DNA of 9,656 nt from a virus (lineage: Duplodnaviria > Heunggongvirae > Uroviricota > Caudoviricetes), in IMG/VR virus record IMGVR_UViG_2663762849_000015; one strand, written 5' to 3'. This document shows positions 1 through 5,650 of this stretch, piece by piece. The number at the start of each line of letters is the position of its first letter. The stretch's first letter is position 1. The position numbers and the translations under genes are program-made. Below the pieces are notes generated by a model that saw nothing but the letters and a program-made list of their open reading frames with translations, was not told the DNA's origin and did no database searches.

Positions 1-494
1 CCGGGAAACAGCGCACCGTCCGTCTCAGTCGGTGTCGCCAGCACAAACGAGGCCGTCATGGCTGTCAGCTCCGACATCTGCTCCACCACCCAGCGGTCAC
101 TCAGCTCCTGCTCCGGGTCCGCCTCCGGATTGCCCGCAACGAAATTCACCGCATCCAGAAAACGGGCATACACCCGGCGGCGGACCACCGTGGCCCCCAC
201 CAGGCTCTGCAAATCCTCCGCCATTCCGGTGACAAGACCAAACAGATTGGACACCGTCAGCAACGGTCTGGCACTGCTGCCCTTCCCGCTCATCTCAAAA
301 CCGCTACCGTCAATCGGGTATGCCTGATATTGCCGCCCCTGCCAGGTGACCGGCTCCCCTTTTTCATTCAGCTCATTGCAGAAAAAATACCGCTCACCGC
401 CCTGCACCGTCAGGTCGATTTCCCAGAGCACCACCCGCGGTGACTGCTCTGATTTAACCGACTCGTTCAGACTTTCTTCGTGAATATCCTGCAT
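1..494 (-). CDS. L: Minor tail protein L (lambda gpL-like), N-terminal ~164 codons; 3' end lies beyond the window start
   Basis: Not in the ORF track because it runs off the window edge. Hand translation of the minus strand from ATG at 494..492 gives MQDIHEESLNESVKSEQSPRVVLWEIDLTVQGGERYFFCNELNEKGEPVTWQGRQYQAYPIDGSGFEMSGKGSSARPLLTVSNLFGLVTGMAEDLQSLVGATVVRRRVYARFLDAVNFVAGNPEADPEQELSDRWVVEQMSELTAMTASFVLATPTETDGALFP with no stop, closely matching my recollection of lambda gpL (MQDIRQETLNE...VVLWEIDLT...GGERYFFCNE...). Sits downstream of M in lambda gene order. Confidence 0.85.
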   Translation of the reverse strand, partial: MQDIHEESLNESVKSEQSPRVVLWEIDLTVQGGERYFFCNELNEKGEPVTWQGRQYQAYPIDGSGFEMSGKGSSARPLLTVSNLFGLVTGMAEDLQSLVGATVVRRRVYARFLDAVNFVAGNPEADPEQELSDRWVVEQMSELTAMTASFVLATPTETDGALFP

Positions 495-504
495 ATATCC
501 GCCC

Positions 505-530
505 ATAAAAAAGGGGCGCAGACGCGCCCC
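505..530 (-). terminator. Rho-independent terminator ending the porin cassette, immediately upstream of L
   Basis: Plus 513-530 is GGGGCGC-agac-GCGCCCC, a perfect 7-bp GC stem with 4-nt loop. On the minus strand the hairpin is followed directly by TTTTTTAT (plus 505-512 ataaaaaa). About 175 nt downstream of the porin stop and ~12 nt upstream of the L start. Confidence 0.65.
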
Positions 531-625
531 GAACAATAAAAGTCCAATTTAAAATAAAACCAATAAAGGTAATAACAGAAAGTTAAATCAGCACATGCCA
601 GATGGCAATTGCTGATCGCAGTGAC

Positions 626-648
626 CAATGAAAACTGTGTTTTCATTG
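626..648. repeat. Perfect 10-bp inverted repeat with 3-nt spacer (caatgaaaac-tgt-gttttcattg) in the porin 3' region; function unknown
   Basis: Read directly from the sequence: arms 626-635 and 639-648 are exact reverse complements. Lies in the untranslated stretch between the porin stop (704) and the terminator (505-530). Could be an RNA hairpin or a dimeric protein-binding site. Confidence 0.6.
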
Positions 649-703
649 ATACAGGCCGCCTGTAAGGGCAGACGGCCCGTATTTATTAACTTATCAGCAA
701 TAA

Positions 704-1867
704 TCAGAACTGATAAGTCATACCCACAGCAACGATATTATCTGTCGCAACACCGGCTTTCCGGGTAAATTCACTTTCATCAATCAGGTTAATTTTATAA
801 TCAACATAGGTGGACATATTCTTGTTAAAGTAATAAGTCGCTCCGACATCAATATATTTAACCAGATCCTGATCGCCATGGTTCACACCACCAACCATAA
901 CATCCTGTCCGCGGGACTGAAGGTAGGCCAGGGACGGGCGCAGACCAAAATCAAACTGATACTGCAGTACCGCTTCAAAGTTTTGCGCTTTATCTGCAAC
1001 TCCTTTATCACCAAAGGTCGTCAGATTCTGAGTTTCGGAATATGTTGTAGCCAGGTAAAGGTTGTCAGCATCGTATTTTAGTCCGACTCCCCACATCTCA
1101 GCGTGTTTACCTTTTGCAACACTACCGGAATCAACAACGATCTGCTTTTCAGTCACTTTACCGGTTAAAGGATCAGTTTGTTCAATCGTCAGAGTACCAT
1201 TCAGACCTTTTTCCTGATTATTGGTTCGGTCCGCATTAATATATGCGGCAACGATACCAAAACCTTCATATTCATAACTGGCTGAGAAACCGTGACCATC
1301 ACCATTAGCTTTCCGGAGATCACCCCGATCATTTTTACCCTGGTACTGTGCCGCAAAATTCAGGCCATCGACAAGCCCAAAGAAATCTGTATTACGATAG
1401 GTTAATACCCCGGAAGTACGGGCTGTCATGAAGTTATCGGTCTGGGTCCAGCCATCACCGCCAAACTCTGGTAATACGTCAGTATAAGAACCAACATCGT
1501 ACGCAATACCATAGTTACGACCATAATCAATGGTGCCAAACTCACCAAACTTCAGACCTGCAAATGCAAGACGGGTTTTATTACCCGCAGCACCCTCTGA
1601 TTCAGCTTTATTACCAGAGAACTGATATTCCCACTGACCAAAACCAGTCAACTGGTCATTAATCTGAGTTTCACCTTTAAAGCCCAGACGTGCGTATGTC
1701 TTATCTCCATCATCCCCCTTATCACTGGAGAAATAATGGAGTGCAGTTGCACGCCCATACACATCAAGTTTATTGCCATCTTTATTGTATACTTCTGCAG
1801 CCTGCGCCCCCGCTGCAAAAATTACAGCTGCTGCCACAGCTGAAAGTGCCACTGTCATTTTTTTCAT
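704..1867 (-). CDS. Outer membrane general porin, OmpC/OmpF/PhoE family (phage-borne NmpC/Lc/OmpD-like), apparently intact
   Basis: 387-aa ORF with ATG start at 1867 and AAGGA Shine-Dalgarno ~8 nt upstream. N-terminal signal peptide [23 protein letters not shown] followed by [15 protein letters not shown]. Porin hallmarks: [63 protein letters not shown]-terminal ...VAVGMTYQF ending in Phe. Visibly lower GC than the flanking phage genes. Confidence 0.93.
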
Positions 1868-2073
1868 GATTTAATCCTTATTTAAACTGAACTATTCATG
1901 CATAGAGATGTCATGAACAAAACTCAAAATATTGTAAATTAAATTACGGGTTCAATTTTTATTTTGTTTCAAAATGTAAAAAAACAACTTTGATAGCACT
2001 TTATGTCAAGACAAAACAAAAATAACAAGCAAGCAAATTAATAAACGATGCTTTTAGGTTTTTTCTCAAAAAC
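1868..2073 (-). promoter_or_regulatory. AT-rich upstream regulatory region of the porin gene with candidate sigma70 promoter and an OmpR-box-like sequence
   Basis: 206-bp AT-rich non-coding gap between the M stop (2074) and the porin ATG (1867). Minus-strand TTTACATTTTGAAACAAAAT (plus 1961-1980) resembles the OmpR-binding C1 site I recall from ompC (TTTACATTTTGAAACATCTA). Candidate -35 TTGAAC (plus 1950-1955) and -10 TATTTT (plus 1926-1931) with 18-bp spacer; a consensus TTGACA hexamer also at plus 2004-2009. Exact promoter elements are not resolved. Confidence 0.5.
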
Positions 2074-2415
2074 TTATCTTATTACCTGTTCCATCATACA
2101 ACTGAAATCGCTGTACCGGGCGTTATCCGTAACACTCCACTCCCGGCACACCACCCTGACCGTCCGGTTATGTTTCGGGGGCTTCCACAAAAAAGCCCGG
2201 TAACCACCATGCCATGACAGAAACGCGGACAGTGCCTCCCGCTCAGCATCCGTTGTCACCCGAAAAACCACCTGAAAGGTCTTCAGTTGCGCATTCAGTC
2301 CTGCCGGACGACGTTGCTGATAACCGTCGCCAAACTTCACCGTCATCACCGACGGTTTCTCCGTCACCTGCATCCCTTCCCGGGGACACCAGTGAAGGGT
2401 CTTAATCTCATCCAC
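2074..2415 (-). CDS. M: Minor tail protein M (lambda gpM-like)
   Basis: 113 aa; ...IKTLHWCPREGMQVTEKPSVMTVKFGDGYQQRRPAGLNAQLKTFQV...FLWKPP... aligns with my recollection of lambda gpM (MKTFRWKVKPGMDV...VRFGDGYSQRAPAGLNANLKTY...FLWTPP). Start is GTG at 2415 preceded by GGAGG; it overlaps the 3' end of the tape measure gene. Confidence 0.9.
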   Translation of the reverse strand: MDEIKTLHWCPREGMQVTEKPSVMTVKFGDGYQQRRPAGLNAQLKTFQVVFRVTTDAEREALSAFLSWHGGYRAFLWKPPKHNRTVRVVCREWSVTDNARYSDFSCMMEQVIR

Positions 2416-5400
2416 TCAGCATTCCTCCGTCACGACGCATGGATAACATCACCGCCTGTACCCGCTGGTCAATCAGCTGCACAAGACTGCCTGCCGCCTC
2501 CGGCCCTATCTGTCCGTTAGCCCCGTCATTCTGAATGGCGATATGGTAGACCGGGGAATACACCAGACCGGCACTGCCGTTCATACTGCCCACCGCGCGT
2601 ACACCCAGCGAGCCATCCGCCGCCCGGGTCAGGGGCATTATGGCTTCAGGTCCTGCTTCCCCCATCAGCCCGGCCCCTTTTGCAAAGGCAAAGTACGTGG
2701 GCGTATCCACAATACTGTTGCTGTACGCGCTCAGGTTTGCCGAGGTATACACGCCGCCTTTTGCATTGGCCACCGCACCGCCCAGCCAGTCACCAATGCT
2801 GCCAATAAATCCTCCTGCACCGGACATACTGTTTGCCGCCGTCTTAATTCCGTTGACAATCGCGGCATTCATAAGAACTTTTGATATTTCCTGCAGCACT
2901 GATGAGGCCCAGTTGCGCCATTCCACTTTATTCCCGTTCAGCATCTCCGTGATGTTATTCACCATCCCTGAGATACCCTCCGTCGCAAGCTGTGCTGCCT
3001 GTGAGGCGTAATCGGACGCATTATCCACCCAGTTACTGAGCCCCTCCTGCAAGCCTTTCTGCCAGTCCGCACGCTGCACATCCGATTCGGCATAAAAGGC
3101 TGCCTGGTCCTTAAGGCGTTCGCTCAGATACTGCGCGTTCTGTGCCCGTGCCTGTCTGTAAAAATCCTCACTGATATCCCCGGCCTGATACTGAGACTGA
3201 AGGTCCGCATCCTTCTGGCGGAAGCTGTCGCGGATCTGCTGCAACTCCCGCATGCGTTCCCTGGCTCGTTCTCCCTGCCCGTACCCCAGCAGTTCGGCTT
3301 CATTTGATGCACGCGCAGCCACATTATCATTCTTCAGGGTCTCTTCCCGGGATCGCAACTGTTCCCGGATTTTTTGCTGGTCAATCAGGGCCGCGTTACG
3401 CAGCAGTTCCTGCTTCTGCATCTCCGTCAGGGTTTTCAGTTCGCCCTGCGCAGTCTGGTACTTCAGCTTCACCAGCTCTGTATTCTGACCCGCCAGTGCC
3501 AGTTGCTCTTTCTGCTGCTTCAGTAGCCGGGAAAAACTGTCTTCCGCTTTTTCCGTCTCTGATTTTCCACCCCGGGATTTGGGTTTGTTCGCCTCGTTAT
3601 TACGCCAGGCTTCCAGAGCATTACTGATATAACGCTGTCTCGCCTCCTGATACGAATCCCCCACAAAACCAAGGTCATCCGCCGCATACCCCAGCCGGGC
3701 ACGCTCTTTTTCCTCCCCCTTCAGTCGGGACAGGGCCAGCTCACGTTCTGTTTTTGTCAGGGCGCTCTGCTGTTTATCATCCAGGGTGGCCTGCGGCAGC
3801 CGTAACGGTACATTCACCAGTCCCTGACGCTGCTGAAGCAGTTCATTCCCCAGCCCCAGCAGACGGTTGAATTCCGTATGCTGGCCGTTCATGACCAGCA
3901 GTGACTGATACGCTTTATTCTGCTCTGCCGCCTGCTGACGAATTAACGCCACACGGCGATCTTCCAGTCCGGCAAGCACATCCTGAATGGACTGCGCCTT
4001 TTCCTGCATCTGTGCCAGACGGGACTGCTCAACAGCAAGCTGCTCTGTTGCCTGAGCAAGCCCTTCCGTTACAGTTTTCACCGAGGTCAGATGGTTTATC
4101 ATGAATCCGTCACCGGTCGTCCAGCCCGGGTTCGCCAGAACATACTGATATCCTGCGATTTTTTCCTGCAGGGATTTCACCCGACTGGCCTGTTCATCAA
4201 TCAGCCGGTTCTGCTCTGTCAGCGCCGCCCGTGTTCGTCCTTCATTATCTGAGGCTTCAGGCAAAGACATTGACGGCGTTTTATGCGCGATTTCATCTAT
4301 CGTCAGTGCATACTGGCGCGCTGACTCCCTGGCCTGCTCCTGATTCTGGTACAGCGTATACCATGCTGCTGCCCCCAGCATCACCAGTCCGGGTACGCCA
4401 CCAACCAGTCCCAACGCACCAGTCATCAGACGTGAGCCCACCGCCGTTGTACTGTTCAGCGCATTCTGGGCTGCGGTTCTGGCAGCAATATTTCTGTTCA
4501 GGCGTTCCTGTGTGGCCGCCAGACGGGCTTCTGCAGCAATCTGCATCTCCGTCCCGCGGGCTGCCGCCACAGCCTGCTGTGCACGGTACACGGCTGCCCT
4601 TGCCCGCGCCGTGGCAATCTGCGTCCCCCTGAGCTGTGCTTCCGCCAGTGCCACTTCATTACGTGCTGCCGTCACAAGTCCTGCCGTGGCAGACACCGCT
4701 CCGGAGGCCATATTGCCAAAGTACCGGGCAACCCCGACGGCAACCAGCGCCCCCGCTGCTGTTGCCACATTATCAATATTACCGGCAACACCGTTCAGCA
4801 CGCCGGAGAGCGTTTTCGTCGCTCCGCTGGCTTCATTCGCGCCACCCACCCAGGCCATAAAGGCGTTTTCCACCTTTGTGATCCCGTCAGAGACCGTTTC
4901 CGGCATGGCGGCATATTCATCACGCAATACCCCCAGCTGGCTGATTAACGCAGGAACGACTTTATCCGCCGTCAGTTTGCCGTCGTCCGCCATCGCCTTA
5001 AGGTCTTTACGGGCCACGCCCATACCCGCAGCCAGTGCACGTATGATCCGGTCTCCGCTTTCATTGACCGAATTAAATTCCTCACCCCGTAACACACCCT
5101 GTGCCAGCGCCTGGCTGAACTGGGTGATCACCGAGCCCGCCTCTGCCGTACTGGCACCGGAGATTTTCAGCCCCGTGGAAATGGCCTCCGTCACCTTCAG
5201 TACATCACCGGCACTGTAGCCATATTCACGCATTGAGGCTGCCGAGCGGGCAAACAGGGCCGCATTATCTGAAAATGCCGTGCCCGTCCGCTGGCTGATA
5301 TCCATCAGCACTTTCTGTGATGACGAAAATTCATCGGATGACTGCGACGCCTGTTTCAGTCGGGCATTCACGGAACTCCATTCATCGGCCAGAGAAATCA

Positions 5401-5650
5401 GGTGTCCGGTGGCAAAGGCACCTGCAAATGCCCCCGCCGTTCCGGCAGCTGAAGCGCGGATTTCCGTCAACTGGCTGTTCAGCTCAGCCAGGGCGCGTCG
5501 CTGCTCCCGGGCGACTGCGGCAGCCTGACGCCCGCCATTCTGCAGGGTCCGGTAATATTCACTGCCCATGCGGGCAGCCCGCTGGATCTCCGACTGGAAT
5601 GACTGCGAATTTGCCGAAATTTTGATAATCAGTTCACGTAACGTCGCCAT
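2408..5650 (-). CDS. H: Tail length tape measure protein (lambda gpH-like)
   Basis: 1080-aa ORF with ATG at 5650 preceded by GGAGAAAGG. Long Ala/Gln/Glu-rich, predicted coiled-coil sequence with a central hydrophobic Gly-rich segment (LMTGALGLVGGVPGLVMLGAAAWYTLY). Positioned between the G/GT chaperone and M as in lambda. Confidence 0.93.
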   Translation of the reverse strand: MATLRELIIKISANSQSFQSEIQRAARMGSEYYRTLQNGGRQAAAVAREQRRALAELNSQLTEIRASAAGTAGAFAGAFATGHLISLADEWSSVNARLKQASQSSDEFSSSQKVLMDISQRTGTAFSDNAALFARSAASMREYGYSAGDVLKVTEAISTGLKISGASTAEAGSVITQFSQALAQGVLRGEEFNSVNESGDRIIRALAAGMGVARKDLKAMADDGKLTADKVVPALISQLGVLRDEYAAMPETVSDGITKVENAFMAWVGGANEASGATKTLSGVLNGVAGNIDNVATAAGALVAVGVARYFGNMASGAVSATAGLVTAARNEVALAEAQLRGTQIATARARAAVYRAQQAVAAARGTEMQIAAEARLAATQERLNRNIAARTAAQNALNSTTAVGSRLMTGALGLVGGVPGLVMLGAAAWYTLYQNQEQARESARQYALTIDEIAHKTPSMSLPEASDNEGRTRAALTEQNRLIDEQASRVKSLQEKIAGYQYVLANPGWTTGDGFMINHLTSVKTVTEGLAQATEQLAVEQSRLAQMQEKAQSIQDVLAGLEDRRVALIRQQAAEQNKAYQSLLVMNGQHTEFNRLLGLGNELLQQRQGLVNVPLRLPQATLDDKQQSALTKTERELALSRLKGEEKERARLGYAADDLGFVGDSYQEARQRYISNALEAWRNNEANKPKSRGGKSETEKAEDSFSRLLKQQKEQLALAGQNTELVKLKYQTAQGELKTLTEMQKQELLRNAALIDQQKIREQLRSREETLKNDNVAARASNEAELLGYGQGERARERMRELQQIRDSFRQKDADLQSQYQAGDISEDFYRQARAQNAQYLSERLKDQAAFYAESDVQRADWQKGLQEGLSNWVDNASDYASQAAQLATEGISGMVNNITEMLNGNKVEWRNWASSVLQEISKVLMNAAIVNGIKTAANSMSGAGGFIGSIGDWLGGAVANAKGGVYTSANLSAYSNSIVDTPTYFAFAKGAGLMGEAGPEAIMPLTRAADGSLGVRAVGSMNGSAGLVYSPVYHIAIQNDGANGQIGPEAAGSLVQLIDQRVQAVMLSMRRDGGMLSG

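Follow-up and report, generated by a model that had tools for sequence, protein, structure and literature searches.

A prophage porin 3′UTR as a candidate antisense silencer of the host porin mRNAs ompC and, more weakly, ompF

Introduction

Phage morons are promoter-gene-terminator insertions in late operons, with lom and bor of lambda as examples. Small RNAs (sRNAs) can be released by processing from the 3′ untranslated region (3′UTR) of an mRNA, as are CpxQ and SroC. The host porin mRNAs ompC and ompF are repressed by MicC (RF00121), which is chromosomal and Hfq-dependent, and by MicF (RF00033), respectively. The study of IpeX, the nearest known relative of the element described here, reportedly found that OmpC and OmpF, though not OmpA, are repressed at the post-transcriptional level, and that the repression of ompC is Hfq-independent and that of ompF is not. 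Later papers that cite Castillo-Keller, Vuong and Misra (2006) describe IpeX as an RNA from the 3′UTR of nmpC (DLP12) and lc (PA-2), both prophage porin genes, and report that it represses OmpC and OmpF. One paper gives IpeX as Hfq-independent, and NmpC is reported to be expressed from a prophage in a lysogen. Here, we describe the 3′UTR of an OmpC-family porin gene in a 9,656-nucleotide stretch of viral DNA (the window; Caudoviricetes, IMG/VR record IMGVR_UViG_2663762849_000015), in which the porin gene lies within the tail operon of a lambdoid prophage.

Comparative analysis and modelled duplexes make it probable, in our judgement, that this 3′UTR acts as an IpeX-like regulatory RNA, that is, as a MicC/MicF-like antisense silencer of the host porins. 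On balance we also lean towards a wider proposal, in which prophage porin cassettes carry a built-in silencer of the host porins, the 3′UTR mimicking MicC and MicF against ompC and less strongly against ompF, with the leader of the phage porin itself immune. A first-pass annotation of the window had been concerned with the palindromes of this region; its most informative part is the single-stranded stretch between the fourth hairpin and the terminator, which was absent from that account.

Results

Complementarity of the Unpaired Stretch to Host Porin mRNAs

The porin 3′UTR (703..507, minus strand, the sense strand of the porin) is composed of four hairpins (HP1 to HP4) and an intrinsic terminator. 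The single-stranded stretch that separates HP4 from the terminator begins with the putative seed (Table 1). Duplex energies were calculated with RNAduplex on unpaired segments only; full-length RNAs gave meaningless end-to-end duplexes. Significance was assessed against 3000 dinucleotide shuffles, with either the seed or the target randomised, and the background consisted of 93,762 segments of 55 nt from 80 enterobacterial chromosomal loci. The ompC leader of MG1655 was read directly (..GCAGUGGCAUAAAAAAGCAAAUAAAGGCAUAUAACAGAGGGUUAAUAACAUG).

The seed of the window pairs with the ompC leader over 27 bp (14 + 8 + 5, including 3 G-U pairs) at positions −36..−6, covering the Shine-Dalgarno sequence GAGGG. 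The energy of this duplex was −27.1 to −27.8 kcal/mol (z of −5.6 and −5.9), and 0/3000 shuffles of the seed and 0/3000 shuffles of the target were as good. Only 3 of the 93,762 background segments equalled it, all of them the identical ompC leader. The opening energies were 6.6 kcal/mol for this seed and otherwise 4.5 and 5.5 kcal/mol; with them taken into account, the net values were about −15 to −16 kcal/mol (about −15 kcal/mol for the window seed), comparable to that of MicC.

Two diverged relatives of this seed gave similar results. The corresponding stretch of IpeX pairs with ompC over 15 + 9 bp at the same site, about −31 to −7 from the AUG, with an energy of −25.8 to −26.4 kcal/mol (z = −4.8, 0-2/3000 shuffles as good) and a net value of about −15 kcal/mol after opening. 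Among the variants of the window 3′UTR, two seed subtypes were distinguished: the A type, which is that of the window, and the B type, UUUAAUUUUCAUUUUAUUACCUUCAUUGC, which is carried by four variants (L002, L003, L176 and L177). The B-type seed pairs with ompC in the register −13..+10, over the Shine-Dalgarno sequence and the start codon, with an energy of −23.8 kcal/mol (z of −4.4 and −5.6, 0-1/3000 shuffles as good). The 5′ end of MicC, included as a positive control, pairs with an overlapping ompC site at −22.5 to −26.5 kcal/mol (z of −4.3 and −4.7, 1-2/3000 shuffles as good). The best background matches of the A, B and IpeX seeds were the ompC start regions of various genera of Enterobacterales, with the matches of IpeX to its own antisense set aside, and those of MicC were likewise ompC start regions, apart from the antisense of its own gene. 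This extended and accessible complementarity to the ompC leader, better than expected by chance, aligns the element with MicC-like antisense RNAs in predicted function, not in family. For the B-type seed, an ompC start of the Enterobacter/Lelliottia type (..UAAUAAAAUGAAAGUUAA) is a better fit than the E. coli one.

The seeds also pair with the start region of ompF (AUGAGGGUAAUAA), with energies of −19 to −20 kcal/mol and z values of −2.2 to −3.1; the pairing of MicC with ompF was at background. With ompA, with the leader of the window porin and with the nmpC leader, pairing was at background energy only. The presumed target is near-constant in the host species: the ompC leader is at least 99% identical in 5359/5372 E. 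coli genomes, a carrier strain among them.

Structure of the 3′UTR

The sense strand (720..495) folds with an energy of −94.1 kcal/mol, compared with −52.0 ± 4.2 kcal/mol for 200 dinucleotide shuffles (z = −10.1, none as good). The opposite strand folds at −72.4 kcal/mol (z = −7.0), which is weaker by 21.7 kcal/mol. The first-pass annotation had listed several inverted repeats and a terminator, and had named a folding energy no better than that of shuffled controls as grounds for doubt; all of the listed repeats and the terminator are present on the minus strand, and the fold is far below its controls. Its imperfect 8-bp stem at 655-676 is real, and is merely the inner part of the longer stem of HP2. 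In HP1, the last porin codons form the 5′ arm and the stop codon UGA (706..704) is placed in the loop. The first G of the motif GGUCACUGC closes HP3, and the other eight bases are predicted to be single-stranded. The terminator, with 7 G-C pairs and a 4-nt loop, ends 13 nt before the start codon of tail gene L. The tip of HP4 is deleted in the B-type variants.

No match beyond chance level was obtained in an Rfam cmscan of window positions 1-2400 (E ≤ 10), which returned two hits and neither MicC nor MicF. One hit, to C0299, lies at window 582-648 on the plus strand, opposite the porin, with E = 3.7 and 17.8 bits, well under its gathering score of 40, and was regarded as chance; the other, to the S15 leader, had E = 1.7 and was also at chance level. 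A dispersed repeat of the REP, BIME or MITE kind was ruled out, as a 221-nt blastn query from the region matched E. coli only in the porin context. With sensitive blastn, this query was found at 129 places in 119 E. coli records. Outside the porin context, there were a few very weak partial matches of 34 nt at the terminator-proximal end of the query (E ~0.2), and no relevant plasmid matches to the query were found.

Table 1. Features of the porin cassette and its neighbours in the window.
Feature	Position	Strand	Details	Source
Tape-measure gene	5650..2408	minus		ORF list
Tail gene M	2415..2074	minus		ORF list
Porin, OmpC family	704..1867	minus	387 aa	ORF list; RefSeq annotation of 99-100% identical loci
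HP1	687..720	minus	Arms 710-718 / 689-697, 9 bp; 12 bp in the RNA fold	
HP2	649..682	minus	14-bp stem 682..669 / 662..649; 6-nt loop; two G-U pairs in the window	
HP3	626..648	minus	Perfect 10-bp stem; 3-nt loop	
Invariant motif GGUCACUGC	618..626	minus	Between HP3 and HP4; predicted unpaired except for the first G	
HP4	586..617	minus	Compound hairpin; 8 outer and 4 inner pairs	
Single-stranded seed	556..586	minus	5′-UUAACUUUCUGUUAUUACCUUUAUUGGUUUU-3′; between HP4 and terminator	
Seed core UUAUUACCUU	575..566	minus	Invariant in the alignment	
Distal single-stranded spacer	531..555	minus	U-rich; contains AUUUUAAAUUGGAC (555..542)	
Intrinsic terminator	507..530	minus	Stem 530..513, GGGGCGC-GUCU-GCGCCCC; T-run 512..507 (U6)	
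Tail gene L	start at 494	minus		ORF list

Conservation and Covariation among Variants

Fourteen distinct versions of the 3′UTR were gathered from E. coli genomes, IMG/VR and metagenomes, and are 75-100% identical overall. Twelve were aligned (alignment A2); the two left out differ only in the length of the terminal T-run. Across the five helices (52 pairs), 98.8% of the cells are paired, compared with 33-42% for partners offset by 1-3 columns, and 7/591 cells are unpaired. Double-sided compensatory changes were present at 8 pairs (26 cells), whereas shuffles reached 26 cells in 0/500 and 8 pairs in 5/500 cases. All 37 single-sided changes that keep a pair produce a G-U wobble on the sense strand. 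This wobble-only drift, together with the strand asymmetry in folding energy, shows that the structure is under selection in the sense-strand RNA and not as DNA palindromes. The first-pass annotation had looked to conservation of the stems among homologs as a check on its proposal of a 3′UTR-derived sRNA or regulatory RNA; the stems are conserved, and the proposal is supported by these compensatory and wobble-only changes and by the identification of IpeX as the nearest known relative.

The individual helices contribute unequally to this signal. In HP1, 98.1% of the cells are paired; the 5′ arm, being coding sequence, does not vary, and the 3′ arm has five A-to-G cells that give U-G wobbles, one A-A pair left unpaired in two variants, and a 4-nt deletion in one variant. 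HP2 (98.8% of cells paired) has three double-sided compensatory pairs, of which two are G-C to A-U and one is U-A to A-U. Such changes are present at four pairs of HP3, and at one pair of HP4 (A-U to G-C; 99.1% of cells paired). The stem of the terminator, the fifth helix, is invariant in all variants.

The single-stranded stretch is as conserved as the stems, and its core is invariant in all variants. Within the paired positions of the seed, the sole change among A-type variants is a C to U opposite a G of ompC, by which the pair is kept. The motif GGUCACUGC is identical in 12/12 variants and does not occur in IpeX. On visual inspection, it is complementary to a GCAGUGGC box that is common to the ompC and ompF leaders, in a position not colinear with the main seed.

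Homologues of the 3′UTR outside E. coli were not found; the best porins of other genera are 65-69% identical, chromosomal, and followed by short 3′UTRs. The closest chromosomal OmpD-like porins (Citrobacter, Enterobacter and Salmonella arizonae; 13 loci, L095-L107) have only a terminator 20-40 nt past the stop codon. As the chromosomal relatives have the terminator alone, the long structured 3′UTR with an anti-porin seed is a trait of the two prophage cassettes.

Comparison with IpeX

A second group of prophage porins in IMG/VR corresponds to nmpC/lc, with 69% protein identity to the window porin. Its 3′UTR consists of three strong hairpins, followed by ACCUUCUGUUAUAUAUUACCCUUUAUUUUU and a GGGGCG..CGCCCC terminator. 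The sequence is that of the DLP12 nmpC 3′ region of MG1655 (L090, 3363-3529), and its fold has a z of −8.7. The counterpart of ACCUUCUGUUAUAUAUUACCCUUUAUUUUU in the window is CUUUCUGUUAUUACCUUUAUUGG, with a terminator of the same type.

The two elements thus share their location, between the stop codon of a prophage OmpC-family porin and a Rho-independent terminator, and their layout of strong hairpins, an unpaired AU-rich stretch and a GGGGCG..CGCCCC terminator. The unpaired stretches have a common motif (..CUUCUGUUAU..UUACC(C)UUUAUU..), and each is complementary to one shared site in the ompC leader as well as to the Shine-Dalgarno region of ompF. The complementarity of the window seed is strong to ompC, moderate to ompF and at background to ompA, the order of the effects reported for IpeX.

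The differences are also clear. The hairpin sequences are unrelated, with four hairpins in the window and three in IpeX, and the window type has an additional spacer of ~25 nt before the terminator as well as the invariant motif between HP3 and HP4. The window cassette shares the strand of the operon and has M and L as its neighbours; the DLP12 cassette is on the opposite strand and is flanked by Q and the lysis genes. No nucleotide similarity to the 167-nt IpeX was detected by blastn of the 221-nt region, which found window-type loci only (119 records), compared with 2504 records of the IpeX type. The similarity is confined to the seed motif of ~25 nt and the terminator, and 35-68/2000 shuffles score as high. 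An Rfam scan of the IpeX region itself gave chance-level matches only, and IpeX was not among them. On sequence comparison, the window element is IpeX-like by position, architecture and predicted targets, and is not a member by sequence. Given that the nearest relative of the cassette is the nmpC/lc gene whose 3′UTR is IpeX, and that the sense-strand structure is conserved, the reading of the window element as a regulatory RNA is supported.

Comparison with MicC, MicF and 3′UTR-Derived sRNAs

At the sequence level, the seed (GUUAUUACCUUUAUUG) is similar to the MicC 5′ end (GUUAUAUGCCUUUAUUG), with a local alignment score of 37 compared with 22.1 ± 3.3 for shuffled sequences (2/2000 as high). 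The two RNAs have overlapping sites in the ompC leader, and the hybridisation energy of the window seed is equal or better. Unlike MicC, the window element is part of an mRNA 3′UTR and not an independent gene, its duplex reaches over the Shine-Dalgarno sequence, the rest of the RNA is unrelated, and it does not match the Rfam model. With the seed of MicF, the window seed shares UUAACUUU..UUAUUACC (16/2000 shuffles as high for the A type and 12/2000 for the B type), and it pairs with the same AUGAGGGUAAUAA start region of ompF. It differs from MicF in having no Rfam match, a shorter ompF pairing of moderate significance and another genomic context.

Like 3′UTR-derived sRNAs, the element has the terminator of its parent mRNA, an AU-rich stretch with a conserved unpaired seed upstream of it and a U-tail, and lacks a detectable internal promoter: no sigma-70-like promoter was found in a scan of 505..720, in which inspection by eye yielded poor hexamers only. 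Its 3′UTR exceeds the usual length for this class and contains far more structure.

Genomic Context of the Cassette

All genes of the window are on the minus strand and correspond to a lambdoid prophage tail operon, according to the open reading frame (ORF) list and RefSeq annotation. In E. coli prophage loci that are 99-100% identical, the RefSeq gene order is tape measure, tail protein, porin OmpC and minor tail protein L. The porin protein is 69% identical to the NmpC/Lc-type prophage porin and 56% identical to OmpC and OmpF of K-12. In 150 phage records without the porin, the match to the query begins only at the start codon of L, which identifies the porin unit as a moron inserted exactly at the junction of M and L. 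It resembles described morons in this precise position between conserved tail genes and in having an upstream region and a terminator of its own, and differs in a second, RNA-level payload, which the 3′UTR is predicted to provide. The porin is present between M and L in 111/5426 complete E. coli genomes, many of which are Shiga-toxin-producing strains.

Approximately 100 nt upstream of the porin start, at window 1965-1980 on the minus strand, is the sequence TTTACATTTTGAAACA, found unchanged over 16 nt in the OmpR-box region of the ompC promoter in K-12. On the strength of this identity, the phage porin may be under OmpR control, as is the host porin that it would replace.

Discussion

Proposed Mechanism

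The cassette consists of an upstream region containing the OmpR-box sequence, the porin, the structured 3′UTR and the terminator. In a lysogen, transcription would start at the cassette's own promoter and stop at its terminator, so that tail gene L would stay silent. In lambda, Q-modified polymerase reads through terminators, and by analogy it would read through this one during lytic growth. The hairpins most likely shield the porin mRNA, a processed 3′ fragment or both from nucleases, and most likely keep the following ~30 nt unpaired. The unpaired seed would pair with the translation initiation region of host ompC over the Shine-Dalgarno sequence, and less extensively with that of ompF, and would repress both by blocking ribosome binding, by triggering decay, or by both, as MicC and MicF do. 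The leader of the phage porin, which is without the target site on the evidence of its background pairing energy, would escape. Overall, the general porins of the host would be switched off, and replaced, when the phage porin is expressed. The acting form could be part of the full-length mRNA or a processed 3′ fragment. The Hfq pattern reported for IpeX, with ompC repression independent of Hfq and ompF repression not, would fit a long ompC duplex and a short ompF duplex. The same antisense reading is open, as a model, to IpeX itself through its ompC duplex, contrary to the reviews considered below.

Several points weigh against an antisense silencer. Its support is entirely comparative or thermodynamic, and in reviews of 2013, 2023 and 2025, IpeX is described as being without complementarity to, or base pairing with, ompC. 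The complementarity to ompF is just moderately above chance. The A, B and IpeX seeds address ompC in two different registers (−36..−6 and −13..+10), which could reflect plasticity, or could mean that the match stems partly from an AU-rich, anti-Shine-Dalgarno composition. Weak local helices involve the seed region in the minimum-free-energy fold. With no sigma-70-like promoter found in the 3′UTR, processing would be required to yield a separate sRNA. Left unexplained by the antisense model are the invariance of GGUCACUGC, the role of four separate hairpins, and the preference of the B-type seed for the Enterobacter/Lelliottia ompC start.

Alternative Explanations

The strongest competitor, which we regard as rather unlikely, is that the hairpins and the terminator are a passive 3′ module of the moron, serving as barriers to 3′-5′ exonucleases that stabilise the porin mRNA and insulating the tail genes, with no action in trans, and that the match to ompC is incidental. 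Conserved stems with covariation and an invariant terminator would be expected of such a module, and promoter-gene-terminator is the ordinary layout of a moron. A passive module leaves unexplained, however, why conservation of the unpaired stretch, with its invariant core, equals that of the stems, and why three diverged seeds match the start of ompC with z values of −4.4 to −5.9 and have it as their top genomic match. The related IpeX 3′UTR is reported to repress OmpC and OmpF, and the chromosomal relatives manage with a terminator alone.

It is more doubtful that the main role is in cis. Here, the sequence AUUUUAAAUUGGAC (555..542) in the distal spacer would form 12-13 bp with the box GUUCAGUUUAAAU (1892..1880) in the leader of the porin itself, just 5′ of the Shine-Dalgarno sequence, and would circularise the mRNA or feed back on its translation or stability. 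Variants L002, L007, L008 and L177 change both sides compatibly, and the energy ranks at 0.1-0.8% of the background for four variant pairs; against this, the rank is 5% and 16% for two variants, and the recombinant L003 has a mismatch. The independent changes are few, the duplex is AU-rich, and IpeX/nmpC has no comparable match (−8 to −12 kcal/mol). The contact is suggestive at the sequence level, and could coexist with pairing in trans.

Returning to the antisense silencer, the resemblance of its seed to those of MicC and MicF could also mark a decaying relic, for example a porin leader copied in inverted orientation or a micC- or micF-like fragment that was captured, which is now functionless. 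This we consider very unlikely, as conservation of the stretch exceeds that of the hairpin sequences beside it, across the variants and between the two cassette families alike, and the only A-type change in its paired positions, C to U opposite a G of ompC, keeps the pair.

The first-pass annotation had offered protein-binding sites as its second interpretation of the palindromes, and cassette recombination sites would be a related one. Several of the inverted repeats are indeed near-perfect in the DNA. The sequences of the stems nevertheless change without constraint as long as the pairs are maintained, where a site for a sequence-specific protein would be expected to do the reverse, and each of the 37 wobble-only changes would be an A-C mismatch in a cruciform or on the other strand; with the stronger folding of the sense strand, these observations make a function as DNA sites highly improbable.

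A small protein encoded by the region has next to no probability: a mechanical ORF of 59 aa (646..467) is listed, so that the statement of the first-pass annotation that there is no ORF between the stop codon and the terminator does not hold to the letter, but the ORF is not conserved, as the B-type variants have GTG in place of ATG followed by an in-frame TAG, indels of 1, 2, 3 and 13 nt occur in the region, and the frame crosses the terminator into gene L.

Significance

If an antisense silencer is indeed encoded, a single mobile cassette would supply a new major outer-membrane channel together with an RNA-level shut-off of the resident ones. Porin replacement bears on the availability of phage receptors (superinfection exclusion), on antibiotic permeability and on surface antigenicity, and pathogenic E. 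coli are among the carriers, with Shiga-toxin-producing strains accounting for many of the 111. IpeX would gain a conventional antisense mechanism, contrary to approximately twenty years of statements that it lacks complementarity. What is new here is a concrete and testable ompC duplex with named nucleotides, which covers IpeX as well. IpeX, the A type and the B type would be at least three alleles of a seed that addresses the same host mRNAs in different registers, forming a natural comparison set, and a possible second contact, to the leader of the cassette itself, would come in addition.

Further Observations

In 12/13 of the chromosomal OmpD-like loci (L095-L107), a conserved small gene (..AAGGAGTAxGCCxTGCA..) directly follows the porin terminator. 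Relative to NmpC/Lc, the window porin has an insertion of 27 residues (residues ~217-243, window ~1138-1218), and the porin variants range in length from 364 to 387 aa; one surface loop of the porin is, on these grounds, probably variable. In one locus (L004, E. coli DETEC-P1056), the prophage has decayed, with the tape-measure gene and L present as pseudogenes and insertion sequence (IS) elements flanking the region. The porin and its 3′UTR are intact despite this decay, which suggests that selection is acting on the cassette itself.

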